A stretch of DNA of 64,000 bases. Origin: an uncultured Heliobacteriaceae bacterium (GTDB lineage Bacteria > Acidobacteriota > Blastocatellia > RBC074). The number at the start of each line of letters is the position of its first letter. Within the stretch, counting starts at the first letter, position 1. Under the pieces are notes generated by a model, which searched no databases, had not been told where the DNA came from, and saw only the letters and a list, made by a program, of their open reading frames with translations. Location: contig CAZWAK010000004.1 of the NCBI GenBank assembly GCA_964631865.1, forward strand, positions 31,278 to 95,277, read 5' to 3'. The position numbers and the translations under genes are program-made. This document shows, in pieces, positions 31,124 through 48,303 of the stretch.

Positions 31124-31891
31124 ATGCAAAACCGCTTCTTCCTTTTTCTCCTCGTCGTGATGACAATGGCTGCTGAGGCCAAGCCGAAGGACTATGTTTG
31201 TTATCGCACGGCCAATCGGATCACGGTGGACGGCAAGCTGAATGAATGGCGCAAGGTTCCGGCCACCGATGTCTTCGTGGACATCGAAGGCGATGCCAAG
31301 CCGCGCCCGCGCTTCACGACGCGCGCGAAGATGCTCTGGGACGAGCAATACTTTTACATCGCCGCTGAACTGGAAGAGCCGCACGTCTGGGGCACGTTGA
31401 CGAAACGCGATTCGGTGATTTTTCACGACAATGATTTTGAAGTCTTCCTTGATCCGAACGGCGACCGCAACGAGTATTACGAATTCGAGATCAATGCTTT
31501 GAATACCGGCTGGGATTTGTTTTTGCCCAAGCCCTACCGCGACAGCGGCAAAGCCAACAACGCCTGGGACATCACGGGGCTGAAAACCGCCGTGTACATC
31601 AACGGCACGCTGAACGATCCGCGTGATACGGACATTGGCTGGACGGTCGAAATCGCCATGCCCTGGAAAGCTCTTGCGGAGTATGCGCACAAAGCCGCGC
31701 CGCCGAATGACGGTGACGAATGGCGCGTCAATTTTTCGCGCGTCGAATGGCAACACGAAATCGTGGGCGGCAAATATCGCAAAGTCGCCCACACGAAAGA
31801 AGACAACTGGGTTTGGTCGCCACAAGGCGTCATAGATATGCACCGCCCGGAAATGTGGGGCGTCGTGCGCTTCACCACCCGGAAACGATGA
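31124..31891 (+). CDS. carbohydrate-binding family 9-like (DOMON-like) protein
   Basis: ITVDGKLNEW, AKMLWD..YFYI, DFEVFLDP, WTVEIAMPW, WRVNFSR. Confidence 0.85.
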   Translation: MQNRFFLFLLVVMTMAAEAKPKDYVCYRTANRITVDGKLNEWRKVPATDVFVDIEGDAKPRPRFTTRAKMLWDEQYFYIAAELEEPHVWGTLTKRDSVIFHDNDFEVFLDPNGDRNEYYEFEINALNTGWDLFLPKPYRDSGKANNAWDITGLKTAVYINGTLNDPRDTDIGWTVEIAMPWKALAEYAHKAAPPNDGDEWRVNFSRVEWQHEIVGGKYRKVAHTKEDNWVWSPQGVIDMHRPEMWGVVRFTTRKR

Positions 31892-43040: not shown

Positions 43041-43152
43041 CGGCAGCCAATGGCAGTCCCGCCTGCGTTTCACGTTGGCATTCGGTCACTGCGCAGGCTA
43101 CAATGCCTGTCACTTCGGCCCCTGAAACCCTTGCGTGCCCCGCCTGGAATCT

Positions 43153-44166
43153 ATGCCACGAATTGGAATCGAACTGAATAACGTTTGTAATTTGGATTGC
43201 GGTCACTGCTTTCGCGATATTTATCGCGGCGTGGGCGACAAAAGCGATTTGTTTTTTCCGCTCGAACTGCTCGATCAAATCCTGACCGATGCGAAGCCGC
43301 TCGGTTACAACCACGTCGCGATCACAGGCGGCGAACCACCGCTGCATCCGAAGTTTGGCGACGCGCTCGACCTCATTGCCGGGCACGGCTTCACGTATCA
43401 CTTTCTAACCAACGCGCGCAACTTCGCCAAGACGCTCAAAGCCATCACGCCGAAAAAACGCCGCGACGGGCTGACGAACGTTTCGATCAGTATTGACGGG
43501 GCGACGGAAGCTACGCACGACGGGATTCGCGGCCAGGGATCGTATCGCGAATGCGTGGCGGCGATGGCGATTTGTCAGAAGCTGGGCATTCGCGTGGCGT
43601 TGATTTCGACGATCAATCGCGCCAATCGGCACGAGTTGGATCAACTGGCGTTGATGGGCGCGCATCTCGGCGTGTACAAGCACATCTTCGTCCATCAAAA
43701 CCCGACGCAGCATAATTTCAGCAACGATCTCGTCTTGCCGCTGAGCGAATGGCGCGGGATTGAACGCGATGTGGCGCGGCTGCGCAATGAATTTCGGCAC
43801 GACATCGAAATGGCCATCGGCTTTTACACCGATTACTATTTGCCGCGTTGCGCGCCGCTGACGTTGGACGATTTGAATATTGATTACAAAGGCCGCTTGA
43901 CGTTGTGCTGTCAAATCTCGAACTATCGCGACGGCGATCACGACGGCGAAGATGTGGTCGGCGATTTGCGCCGCGAACGCTTGCCCGTTGCGTTGTCGCG
44001 TTTGATGACGCTGGTCAATCAAGTGCATCAGGAACGATTGGAGATGGCGGTTGATCCGACGCGCCGCGAACAATTGCACTATCCGTGTTTGGCGTGTTTG
44101 GAGCGGTTCGGGAAAACGAAAGAAGAATCGTTTGTGCAACTGCAAGGGCTGAAAGTAGGAAGCTAA
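43153..44166 (+). CDS. radical SAM protein with C-terminal SPASM/twitch-like cysteines
   Basis: [25 protein letters not shown]; C-terminal C..IDYKG.LTLCC..CLAC. Confidence 0.9.
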
Positions 44167-44571
44167 ATGGCCGGTTATTCGGAAACTCCGCTGGCGAAAA
44201 AGTTAGGCATCAAAGCAGGCTTTCGCGTCACGTTTCTGAACGCGCCCGATGGCTTTCGCGAGAGCCTGGGCGAACTGCCCGCGCACGTCAAAATCATCGG
44301 CGTGCAAAAGCCGCTCGACCTGATTGTCTTTTTTCCGAAATCTGTCGAAGACCTCGAAAACAAATTTCCCAAGCTGAAAGAAAAGCTCGCGTCGGCGGGA
44401 ATGTTCTGGGTGGCGTGGCCGAAAAAAAGCGCGGGCGTCGAGACCGATTTGACGTTCGACGCCGTGCAGCAAACGGGGTTGGGCTTGGGTTTGGTGGACA
44501 ACAAAGTGTGCGCAATCAGCGACGTGCATTCGGGCTTGCGCTTTGTCTATCGCGTTGTAGATCGCGCGTAG
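44167..44571 (+). CDS. DUF3052 family protein
   Basis: GYSETPLAKKLGIK, WVAWPKK, GLVDNKVCA. Confidence 0.85.
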   Translation: MAGYSETPLAKKLGIKAGFRVTFLNAPDGFRESLGELPAHVKIIGVQKPLDLIVFFPKSVEDLENKFPKLKEKLASAGMFWVAWPKKSAGVETDLTFDAVQQTGLGLGLVDNKVCAISDVHSGLRFVYRVVDRA

Positions 44572-44577
44572 GCAAAC

Positions 44578-44687
44578 ACATTCTCAATTCTCAATTCTTC
44601 ATTCTTCATTCTTTTCCAAAGGAAAATTACTGAATCATTTTCTCTCTGGAAAGGAATGAAGAATTGAGAATGAAGAATGAAGAATGT
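44578..44687. repeat. heptamer-arm palindrome (ATTCTCA/ATTCTTC) between convergent genes
   Basis: five units per arm; same unit family as 15868-15943. Confidence 0.9.
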
Positions 44688-44697
44688 TTGTTGCTTG

Positions 44698-45477
44698 CTA
44701 TCGTTTGGGTTTGCTCTTGGGGATGGTTTTCTGGCGGGCAATTTTGGCCGGAGCAGTTGATTTTACAGGCTCTGGCGTGGCGGTTGCCTTTCCTGCCTTG
44801 ACCAAAAATGAGACTTCCAATACGTCCTGATTCGGATCGTCGGTCATCAATTTGACCAGCAGTTTGTGCGTGCCTGCCGGAAGCTTGTCCGCGCTTTTGA
44901 CCAGCAGCTTGAACTCCTTGCCGGGCGTGACGGTTTCTACTTGTGCTGTAAACGCTGGGTTGTCAGTCACCACCTTTTTGATCTCTGCGACACGACCGCT
45001 GCTCACGTAAATTCCGACTTGGCCTGCGTAGGTTTTGTCGGGCGCAAGCGTCGCTTCGATTTCGTTGGTAGGATCAAACAGATATGACCCAACGCGGTAG
45101 CCTTTCGGGATGAACGGTTCAAATTTCACCGTGAGCCGAAATTCGCCGAGCCGCGCATCGTTCGTGTAGACGGTCGCGTATTTTGTGTGAACGCCCGGGC
45201 CCACAGGCGTGATGGTGAGCGTGATTTTGCCCGCCTGACCAGGCGGGATGACTTTGTCAAAGTCACTGGCGGCACACCCTCAGCTTGGCGCGACGGCTTC
45301 GATCAGCACATCGGCTGTGCCTTCGTTTTTGAGCGTGAACGAGTGGCTGACTTTGGTGTTTTCTTTGACTCTGCCGAAGTCATGCTCAAACGTTTCCAGC
45401 ACGAGCTTCGGCGCTTTGTCCTGCGCGCTGGCCGTGACCGTGCAGAGCAACAGCAGAGCGGTGAGGCATTGTTTCAT
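44698..45477 (-). CDS. secreted DUF1573/Ig-like protein with an in-frame TGA (candidate selenoprotein, 259 aa)
   Basis: ORFs 45280..45516 and 44698..45204 share a frame and are separated only by TGA at 45280-45282; read-through gives HDFG..HSFTLKNEG..IEAVAPS-U-GCAASDFDKVIPPGQAGKI. Confidence 0.8.
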
Positions 45478-45499
45478 GGCGACGAACTCCTTAGAAAAT

Positions 45500-45526
45500 G
45501 TAGCGCGATTTGCCAAATCGCGTTAC
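45500..45526. repeat. REP-like hairpin
   Basis: GTAGCGCGATTTGCCAAATCGCGTTAC. Confidence 0.88.
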
Positions 45527-45617
45527 GCCGCATGTCTTGCAATTTAGGGCGTGCGGCAGTGTAGCAAAAGCGGTGAGAATTGGACAAAGTAAATCTGACC
45601 TGCTAAAAACGGCTGCG

Positions 45618-47681: not shown

Positions 47682-47924
47682 ATGATTCAGACACTAGAAG
47701 CCATCGTGAATGAAGCAGGCAAGATTCACTTGCTGACAGAAGTGCGTTTGAAGACCAGCCGCCGCGCTCTGGTGACGATTTTGGATGAAGCGCCGAAAAT
47801 CCCTGCCGCCCCCCAGAAAGAAAAGCTGCGCGCGGTATTCAGCAAAATGCACGCGGTAGAAATGTTTCGTAGCATTGAAGACCCAAAAATCTGGCAGAAG
47901 ACTTTACGCGATGAATGGGAATAG
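47682..47924 (+). CDS. putative antitoxin
   Basis: MIQTLEAIVNEAGKIHL...WQKTLRDEWE; overlaps the PIN gene. Confidence 0.75.
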   Translation: MIQTLEAIVNEAGKIHLLTEVRLKTSRRALVTILDEAPKIPAAPQKEKLRAVFSKMHAVEMFRSIEDPKIWQKTLRDEWE

Positions 47925-48303
47925 CGCTGTTCTCAACCGCAACACCGTCATTTATGCTTCCAAGCGAACGATTGATGTAGAGAAACTGCTCGCGGCTTAC
48001 GACAAATTTTATGTTTCTATCATCACGTATATGGAGGTCTATGCCTATGATTTTACGGATGCCGCCGAAAAGATGTTGATAGACGAGCTTTTTGCCAGTC
48101 TGGAAATCATCGAGATTACTCGCGACATTGCTGACTTGGCGATTACCTACCGCAAAAACAAACACAAAAAGATCAAGTTGCCAGACGCCATCATTTTGGC
48201 CACTACAAAATACCTGAACGCCGACTTACTGACAGATGATTACGACGATTTTCAAACGGTTGATCCGAGTGTGAAGGTTCTGAGTCTTGACGATTTTAGA
48301 TAA
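47911..48303 (+). CDS. VapC/PIN domain toxin (first acidic residue altered)
   Basis: SIITYMEV, KIKLPDAIILAT, LLTDD..DF; N-terminal VLNRN in place of the usual LD(T/S)N. Confidence 0.8.
   Translation: MNGNSAVLNRNTVIYASKRTIDVEKLLAAYDKFYVSIITYMEVYAYDFTDAAEKMLIDELFASLEIIEITRDIADLAITYRKNKHKKIKLPDAIILATTKYLNADLLTDDYDDFQTVDPSVKVLSLDDFR

Follow-up and report, generated by a model that had tools for sequence, protein, structure and literature searches.

In this work we characterize a gene on the minus strand of a 64,000-nucleotide stretch of DNA, hereafter the window, which corresponds to positions 31,278 to 95,277 of contig CAZWAK010000004.1 (assembly GCA_964631865.1) from an uncultured bacterium of the Blastocatellia (Acidobacteriota); all positions given below are those of the window. 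Taken as a whole, the locus is best explained as a genuine selenoprotein gene of the OS_HP2 / DUF1573 'UGC' family, in which one in-frame TGA would be read as selenocysteine (Sec, U), and we put the probability of this reading at roughly 0.85. By comparison with related genomes and proteins, it was demonstrated that the gene constitutes a single reading frame, that its TGA forms a Sec/Cys pair with the codon of other relatives, that the Sec machinery is encoded in the source genome, and that a conserved RNA structure specific to the Sec forms follows the TGA.

The family itself has been catalogued for years. OS_HP2 ('Olavius symbiont's hypothetical protein 2') appears, in the accessible text of the original report, as one of six new selenoprotein families, with 2 selenoproteins and 0 Cys homologs (Zhang & Gladyshev, 2007; PMC1976440), and the corresponding text of an ocean survey (GOS) published in 2008 holds the entry 'OS_HP2, pfam07610, UxC' (PMC2398784). 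A DUF1573 selenoprotein family with a UGC motif is also found in the portions available of two reviews (PMC9312934, PMC13188914). As this family has been listed since 2007, the window gene is therefore a well-supported additional member and not a discovery.

Reading frame and conservation of the TGA codon

The gene is a single frame of 259 codons running from the ATG at 45477-45475 to the TAG at 44700-44698, and its sole in-frame stop is the TGA at 45282-45280. This TGA is codon 66, lies in the context GCG CCA AGC TGA GGG TGT GCC and is followed by 193 codons, with Cys68 of the U-G-C motif encoded by the TGT at 45276-45274. The list of open reading frames (ORFs) divides the locus into one piece of 78 codons, which ends at the TGA, and another of 168 codons that starts with GTG (45204-44698). 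An earlier reading of this DNA, made from the sequence only, had joined both pieces into one frame broken by nothing else than this TGA, and translation of the minus strand bears this out; its expectation that standard annotation would split such a gene is likewise met by the gene callers, which give the 168-codon fragment, and database entry P0003, the window's own product, is identical to that 168-aa fragment. The ribosome-binding site that it had pointed out is present as an AAGGAG hexamer at 45492-45487, with the ATG 9 nt further on; this hexamer is supplied by the final 6 nt of a dispersed repeat of ~41 nt (45487-45527, minus strand).

Conservation of the TGA was assessed in a search set of 41 genomes, constituted by the source genome and 40 relatives, of which 28 have a match. 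In all 13 genomes of the same genus the best match carries one TGA, at 45-74% identity, and among the other 11 genomes of the same family the best match carries a TGA in 6, lacks it in 4 (among them G015, which is counted in this tally only) and is absent from 1; the match of genome G009 also bears a TAA close to its end. For the alignment, 20 loci were fetched, one of which holds two tandem copies, and the resulting 21 sequences were translated with TGA as U: the column of residue 66 contains U in 19 and Cys in 2 (G019 and G021), always before G-C. Furthermore, a scan with two conserved peptide patterns, using one genome per species, retrieved 80 loci, and the 84 matches covering residue 66 comprise 55 U, 28 C and 1 S; this U/C ratio is no estimate of frequency, because one of the patterns contained C-G-C and was able to find Cys forms only. 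A wider sample of 301 Acidobacteriota genomes gave a match at E <= 1e-10 in 144 of them, with a TGA in 46 of the 150 matches listed (genome G064 figures in this tally alone, with one match that lacks a TGA); in this sample, the place of the codon was established for 20 fetched TGA-bearing matches from other Acidobacteriota families, and in 20/20 it occupies the same column, before G-C. The aligned relatives have TGA or Cys at this column, and the TGA, shared by the 13 congeners and by distant relatives, is not unique to this assembly, which settles one of the doubts attached to the sequence-only reading.

Public protein records represent these genes mostly by C-terminal fragments. In a protein collection searched over lengths of 142-454 residues, 28 relatives were found at >=50% identity, comprising 25 C-terminal fragments of 143-199 residues, 2 Cys forms and 1 sequence reading W at the site; the Cys forms P0002 and P0004 display 65-70% identity, and the 25 fragments are labelled 'hypothetical protein', without any Pfam domain.

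The Sec machinery is complete in the source genome (8.36 Mb, 377 contigs), as the four genes looked for were all found: SelA scores 575.6 bits, SelB 375.5 bits (covering positions 1-575 of the 581 in the model), SelD 366 bits, with an in-frame TGA of its own in C-A-G-U-A-A-K, and tRNA-Sec 64.1 bits, with anticodon tca according to ARAGORN; the scores of selA, selB, selC and selD all exceed the curated cut-offs. A genome devoid of selA, selB or selC would have refuted the sequence-only reading, and the outcome on this point is in its favour.

A real stop at codon 66, leaving either a pseudogene or two products (a secreted peptide of 65 residues and the 168-residue fragment), is what the gene callers imply by giving only the downstream fragment, here and in 25/28 close database relatives, and TGA is indeed an ordinary stop in this genome, since it terminates 13 of the 43 stop-to-stop frames of >=300 codons in the window. 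Against such a stop, which we consider highly improbable, stand the retention of the TGA in one column down to ~25-45% identity with Cys in other relatives, the DUF1573 domain (residues 27-116) that spans the TGA, the position of the fragment's internal GTG within that same domain, the Sec-specific RNA structure 3' of the TGA, and a codon-position periodicity that continues on both sides in one frame. In 14 Sec-form orthologs the fraction of variable sites at the three codon positions is 0.55 / 0.50 / 0.90 upstream of the TGA and 0.73 / 0.60 / 0.97 downstream of it, in the same frame; third positions vary in 38/42 codons upstream and 140/144 downstream, but in 9/18 (0.50) of codons 67-84, directly after the TGA.

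An error of sequencing or assembly, or a TGA read otherwise (by a reassigned code, or by near-cognate read-through as Trp, Cys or Gly), appears just as improbable. One public record, P0005 (256 aa), does translate the homologous TGA as W and reads A-P-S-W-G-C, which probably reflects the choice of a TGA=Trp code by the gene caller on a contig of 1.3 kb. Conversely, contigs of four coded runs belonging to four studies span 45280-45282 with no alternative letter, two of them (858-860 nt) with 0 differences, although the assembly may itself derive from one of the four; this agreement speaks against the base-call error that the sequence-only reading had named as a risk. In addition, the TGA is common to 13/13 congeners, TGA codons end 13/43 long frames in the window, the genome encodes all of the Sec machinery, and the gene bears a hairpin linked to Sec. 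Pseudogene, error and alternative code are thus very unlikely, given the Sec machinery, the use of TGA as an ordinary stop, the TGA/Cys column, the coding pattern on both sides and the agreeing contigs.

Certain points weigh against assignment as a Sec-encoding member of the family. The NCBIfam model NF041425 ('OS_HP2 family (seleno)protein') scores the window protein at 83.1 bits, below its curated cut-off of 100; the relatives are not independent, and the pattern-scan loci overlap with the set of aligned relatives, many of them from the same genomes; and no experimental report of selenium in any DUF1573 protein was found in the accessible text of the selenoprotein literature searched. Among sequencing runs, none of RNA was listed for this stretch, an outcome that is neutral as to expression. 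The window protein nevertheless has NF041425 as its best NCBIfam match, as do all 18 aligned relatives (best E-value 2.5e-31), it matches PF07610 above the gathering score, and its Sec stands in U-G-C, within A-P-S-U-G-C. By the criteria of the reviews (PF07610 plus UGC) the protein is a member of the family, and by the NCBIfam cut-off it is a near relative. In the mechanism that we propose for this gene, SelB and Sec-tRNA(Sec) would decode UGA-66 as selenocysteine, and the recoding signal would consist of two abutting hairpins contained within 18 codons after the UGA.

Two hairpins downstream of the UGA

Both hairpins that the sequence-only reading had placed 3' of the UGA are present as described, and both are contained in the minimum free energy (MFE) fold of the region (-25.2 kcal/mol, z = -2.27; equalled by 4/200 shuffles). 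Hairpin 1, GUGACUUU-GAC-AAAGUCAU, has its loop 21 nt after the UGA and an energy of -5.6 kcal/mol on its own, whereas hairpin 2, CCCGCCU-GGUC-AGGCGGG, has its loop at 39 nt and reaches -12.5 kcal/mol alone. The MFE fold also includes a basal helix formed by GGGUGUG, after the UGA, and CACGCUC, after hairpin 2, which would create a three-way junction; this candidate was dropped because the helix is paired at 59.5% across 19 Sec forms.

Over the same 19 Sec forms, whose alignment is ungapped here, the two hairpins are 94.4% paired, and 5 of their 15 pairs have changed on both sides. The observed pairing and covariation scores were matched by 0/500 shuffles, partners slid along the sequence give 31-53% pairing, and RNAalifold recovers both hairpins independently. 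Examples are, in hairpin 1, the replacement of U-A by C-G and of G-C by A-U, and, in hairpin 2, that of C-G by A-U and of G-U/G-C by U-A. One congener (L036, G008:C221:8578-10244) carries two tandem copies of the gene, each with the TGA and both hairpins, and hairpin 2 of its second copy reads CCCUCCC-GGUC-GGGUUGGG.

It is hairpin 2 that follows the presence of Sec. Encoded by P-P-G-Q-x-G, it is paired at 98.4% across Sec forms, with 3 pairs changed on both sides. Its GGUC loop occurs in 51/54 Sec forms versus 0/28 Cys forms, and at least 6 of its 7 pairs can form in 53/54 Sec forms, with no Cys form (n=28) exceeding 5 pairs; when only sequences that share the P-P-G peptide are compared, 41/44 Sec forms and 0/8 Cys forms have the GGUC loop. 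Furthermore, a quick maximum-likelihood tree of 79 rows (LG+G4; the rows left out were those of matches <90 residues, L108, which is short, and the S form, and the hairpin-encoding columns were retained) displays at least 8 Sec/Cys changes, and hairpin 2 tracks Sec in 7/7 independent contrasts (sign test p = 0.016).

Hairpin 1 is encoded by S-D-F-D-K-V-I, in which the codons GAC-UUU and AAA-GUC are mutually reverse-complementary, and it is paired at 91% across Sec forms. Among the 8 peptide-matched Cys forms, 4-7 of its 8 pairs are retained and the 5-bp core is complete in 5/8; much of hairpin 1 is a consequence of these self-complementary codons of the conserved D-F-x-K-V peptide and is retained in Cys forms. 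Its loop is variable: members of the genus show GAC or GAU, and relatives at family level show CACA, CACG or UCACGCG. Regarding the distant Sec forms, MFE folds were obtained for 20, of which 16 have a second hairpin with loop GGUC, GGUA, GGU or GUU located 39-45 nt after the UGA; in the remaining 4 the first hairpin is strong and has its loop, GUC or AGUU, at 18-20 nt, and the second hairpin differs. Three distant Sec forms contain 1-2 extra codons, and in these an enlarged hairpin 1 accommodates the added bases, while hairpin 2 remains directly adjacent to it and has its loop at 42-45 nt.

As stated in the accessible text of a review (PMC13188914), the consensus bacterial selenocysteine insertion sequence (SECIS) carries its loop (3-9 nt) on an upper stem of 4-16 bp, with 16-37 nt from UGA to loop and an MFE <= -7.5 kcal/mol; one of the two leading loop positions is a G, mostly as G[G|U]. 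Both hairpins have a stem and a loop of this size (8 bp and 3 nt in hairpin 1, 7 bp and 4 nt in hairpin 2), and both carry the loop G (GAC and GGUC, respectively), although several relatives have a hairpin 1 loop without such G. Several observations count against the assignment of a SECIS here, and in particular against our preference for hairpin 2 as its main element. Neither hairpin alone agrees with all four published features, since hairpin 1 has the expected spacing (21 nt) but falls short in energy (-5.6 against -7.5 kcal/mol), and hairpin 2 has the energy (-12.5 kcal/mol) but lies too far from the UGA (39 nt against 16-37 nt). Rfam gave no match at the gathering score in any part of the window, and near the site just two irrelevant matches appeared at E <= 10. 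The 4/20 distant forms with a GUC or AGUU first loop, whose second hairpin is not of the GGU type, also belong here.

These last forms, with a canonical distance and a G-U-type loop, are the reason why hairpin 1 could be the true SelB site, leaving to hairpin 2 an accessory role such as ribosome pausing or stabilisation of the fold. This possibility, which we regard as a minority view, agrees with the 21-nt spacing, the 3-nt loop and the first-position G of the published model, with the retention of a first hairpin at 18-21 nt by very different sequences in distant Sec forms, and with the occurrence of at least 7 of the 8 pairs in 45/53 Sec forms against 1/8 peptide-matched Cys forms; it is countered by the low stability of hairpin 1 alone, by its unconserved loop, by a 5-bp core that the D-F-x-K-V codons dictate, and by the fact that the element lost from every Cys form is hairpin 2. 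On balance, and with some reserve, these comparisons favour hairpin 2 as the Sec-specific element of a bipartite signal and probable SelB-binding site, with hairpin 1 as a compact spacer. The sequence-only reading was thus right as to a SECIS-like structure after the UGA; of the two hairpins, the comparative evidence links to Sec the second (GGUC, +39 nt) and not the GAC hairpin that it had emphasised. With hairpin 2 as binding site, hairpin 1 would fold as a compact spacer that leaves 13 unpaired nt from the UGA to the base of the structure, and SelB would bind the 7-bp stem with its GGUC tetraloop.

More speculatively, and with appreciable doubt, these genes may represent a distinct bipartite class of bacterial SECIS, in which a Sec-only, SelB-binding GGUC/GGU hairpin located 39-45 nt after the UGA, beyond the 16-37 nt of the consensus, would be brought into range by an intervening hairpin that folds aside and also absorbs codon insertions, an arrangement that would be forced by the need to encode x-x-S-D-F-D-K-V-I-P-P-G-Q-x-G. 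If this is true, predictors tuned to a single-hairpin SECIS would give such genes poor scores. The two-hairpin signal, with its key loop just beyond the consensus spacing, is what this case adds to the known family; besides, Sec and Cys forms often share the peptide after the site, which provides a clean natural experiment on synonymous positions under SECIS constraint.

A search of the genome with TIGR01553 yielded no TGA-bearing fdhA that could serve as an internal SECIS control, and selD and two PrdB-like genes were used instead. The selD gene (G000:C17:29624-30550, L011) has a hairpin with loop GUU 33 nt after the UGA; one PrdB-like ORF (G000:C202:5787-6437, L125), with G-G-U-P-N-V-C, has a hairpin with loop GGUC at 20 nt; and the other (G000:C20:17378-17989, L126), with P-M-U-P-M-C, has the hairpin GCAGACC-GUU-GGUCUGC, whose loop lies 18 nt after the UGA.

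Protein architecture, possible function and genomic surroundings

Table 1. Features of the selenoprotein locus in the window.
Feature	Position	Strand	Basis
Complete predicted selenoprotein gene of 259 codons and a TAG stop; its single in-frame TGA is taken as Sec	44698..45477	-	Translation with TGA=U; full-length ortholog alignment with the TGA in one column
AAGGAG Shine-Dalgarno-like hexamer	45487..45492	-	Read from the sequence
Signal-peptide-like N-terminus, codons 1-18, MKQCLTALLLLCTVTASA, with A-x-A before Q19	45424..45477	-	By eye; ortholog pattern; low pLDDT
TGA codon 66, predicted selenocysteine U66 of U-G-C	45280..45282	-	Sequence; TGA/Cys column in relatives
Putative SECIS hairpin 1, stem of 8 bp, GAC loop 21 nt after UGA	45248..45266	-	Fold; pairing across Sec forms
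Putative SECIS hairpin 2, 7-bp stem, GGUC tetraloop 39 nt after UGA, probable SelB-binding element	45230..45247	-	Fold; covariation; Sec/Cys contrasts
DUF1573 (PF07610) Ig-like domain, residues 27-116, containing U66-G67-C68	45130..45399	-	Pfam; NCBIfam; beta-sandwich in model
Second Ig-like beta-sandwich domain, residues ~125-230, without Pfam family	44788..45105	-	AlphaFold2, pLDDT mostly >90; Pfam search
Disordered Lys/Pro-rich C-terminal tail, residues 233-259	44701..44781	-	pLDDT <50 for residues 233-251
168-aa GTG-started fragment given by gene callers in place of the whole gene	44698..45204	-	ORF list; identical to P0003

The N-terminus of the predicted protein reads MKQCLTALLLLCTVTASA and then, past the presumed cleavage site, QD; judged by eye, its basic start, hydrophobic core and A-S-A site give it the look of a type I signal peptide, in agreement with the export signal proposed by the sequence-only reading, and the A-x-A-Q pattern recurs in orthologs. 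A lipoprotein is unlikely, since orthologs do not conserve the Cys of the hydrophobic core. The DUF1573 domain assigned in that reading, with the TGA at the first Cys of a V..SCGC motif, was found as a Pfam match of 74.8 bits against a cut-off of 26.1, to which a related immunoglobulin-like (Ig-like) family, HYDIN/VesB, adds a further match, and the Cys-form relatives read V-A-P-S-C-G-C; Pfam gave no match past residue 118. An AlphaFold2 model built with 18 relatives has a mean predicted local distance difference test score (pLDDT) of 84, with beta-sandwich domains at residues ~20-122 and 125-230 and a disordered tail at 233-259; pLDDT is low at residues 1-18, and order begins at residue ~20. 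In this model U66-G-C68 stands between strands 57-64 and 68-73. The second domain is the part that databases hold as 'hypothetical protein', and the Lys/Pro-rich tail is similar in the closest orthologs only. The product would hence be exported via a cleavable signal peptide and consist of two Ig-like beta-sandwich domains plus a basic disordered tail, with U66-G-C68 on a turn between strands of the first domain.

An exported Ig-like domain in which Sec replaces the first Cys of C-G-C is suggestive of a selenol/thiol-selenenylsulfide couple, and a periplasmic Ig-fold protein with selenol/thiol redox activity is an evenly poised proposal for its function. The U-G-C triad would cycle between the selenol/thiol and the selenenylsulfide, and the protein would serve as a periplasmic oxidoreductase in the manner of the CxC in the Ig-fold protein CsgC. 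According to the accessible text of its description, CsgC is a periplasmic Ig fold with an invariant CxC and an E0' of -139 mV, a CGC tripeptide is quoted at -167 mV, and CsgC is compared with the Ig-like N-terminal domain of DsbD (PMC3173608).

What speaks against a redox role should be set beside this. The proposal is drawn from motif analogy only, the genes around the locus being uninformative as to function. No solved structure was found by sequence at E <= 0.01; a Foldseek search against the PDB returned generic tandem Ig/ASH folds only (ciliary HYDIN-like proteins, titin and 2qsv), with no functional lead; and for a relationship to CsgC or DsbD in particular, there was no PDB sequence match and neither protein was among the Foldseek matches listed. 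The role of CsgC itself was reportedly ascribed later to amyloid inhibition and not to redox activity.

A further, rather tentative suggestion is that U-G-C forms a soft-metal centre (Cu(I), Hg(II), Zn or Cd) and that the protein acts as a periplasmic metal chaperone or scavenger. In general chemical terms a vicinal selenolate/thiolate pair is a good ligand and binds soft metals well, and the available portions of selenoprotein family tables place metal-related entries (MerP/MerT-like, CopZ-like and a cation ATPase) next to this family. However, no metal-resistance or transport genes lie alongside the gene, in the window or in 100 related loci, and there are just two conserved ligands near the site; a cupredoxin-like match is weak and stays below threshold (17 bits where 27 are required; E = 0.006), probably reflecting the shared beta-sandwich. 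The redox- or metal-reactive UxC site put forward by the sequence-only reading is a reasonable proposal, at the level of inference, and a smaller share of the probability falls to some other role.

The gene stands alone between genes of the opposite strand; upstream lie those for an aminotransferase and for a C-N hydrolase, and downstream follow a radical SAM gene and a small ORF. In the relatives the synteny is of a housekeeping kind, with lptE and holA upstream (family-level relatives), a convergent radical SAM gene downstream and an ECF sigma factor beyond it. In the window, the radical SAM/SPASM-like gene (43135-44166, plus strand) is followed directly by a 134-codon ORF without family (44167-44571, plus strand), both convergent to the selenoprotein gene; no NCBIfam family fits the former (best 80.7 bits against a cut-off of 400). 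A radical SAM/SPASM-like gene is convergent to the DUF1573 gene in 38/100 related loci, next to Sec and Cys forms alike; we take this co-location as shared synteny, and a partnership is not shown by it.

Other elements were observed around the locus. ORF 44167-44571 and the selenoprotein gene converge, and the space between their 3' ends holds an AT-rich imperfect palindrome of ~110 nt (44578-44687), with 49-nt arms that are 80% complementary and ATTCTTC/ATTCTCA-like heptamers; it is a dispersed repeat with 77 matches in the source genome (both strands counted) at 70-80% identity. The ~41-nt repeat that supplies the AAGGAG hexamer includes the hairpin CGCGATTTGGCAAATCGCG, and its end reads ...TTTCTAAGGAG; 70 matches to it occur in the source genome at 85-100% identity, some in tandem arrays (e.g., G000:C1:89290-89486), and public contigs break at it. 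Farther along, at 47682-48303 on the plus strand, an 80-aa ORF without family overlaps the start of a PIN-domain ORF (142 aa), in a VapBC-like toxin-antitoxin layout.

Significance and comparison with known systems

Recognition of the complete gene corrects an annotation error that recurs across the Blastocatellia (Acidobacteriota) lineage, in which public records mostly hold the C-terminal fragment only. Selenium use by the abundant Acidobacteriota of soil and freshwater is consequently under-counted, because 25/28 close relatives are fragments, yet 46 of the 150 matches listed carry an in-frame TGA. No text on DUF1573 selenoproteins in Acidobacteria was found in the literature, a search that covered main text, and a SECIS drawing or a list of taxa may exist in figures and supplements; no paper on the function of DUF1573 was found in the literature searched. 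An exported U-G-C protein offers a tractable entry point to that function, and if both the redox reading and the bipartite SECIS were true, this would be the first selenium-containing member of a small redox-active Ig-fold class of the cell envelope.

With the OS_HP2 / DUF1573 family the window protein shares the PF07610 domain and Sec in U-G-C where other members have C-G-C. That family was defined in marine deltaproteobacterial symbionts and ocean samples, whereas the protein described here comes from the Blastocatellia, and it carries in addition a second Ig-like domain and a basic tail. As for structure, the best bacterial Foldseek match, PDB 2qsv from Porphyromonas gingivalis (structural genomics; E = 5.1e-10, TM 0.34/0.40), likewise has two Ig-like domains and a similar length; it differs in its 13% identity, has no assigned function, and shows no sign of a selenoprotein in its title. 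CsgC and DsbD's N-terminal domain resemble the window protein in being exported Ig-like beta-sandwiches with a vicinal redox pair on a loop (CxC in CsgC), an analogy of the 'works like' kind, and differ from it in that the window protein has Sec first and Gly in the middle of the motif.

Regarding the recoding signal, the closest point of reference is the SECIS of E. coli fdhF, which has in common with hairpin 2 a stem-loop within the coding sequence after the UGA, an apical GGUC tetraloop and a G+C-rich stem. In fdhF the GGUC begins 18 nt after the UGA, whereas in the window gene it does so at 39 nt, behind a separate hairpin of 19 nt; and a basal helix that would involve the UGA-proximal bases is not conserved in the Sec forms of the window gene (59.5% paired).

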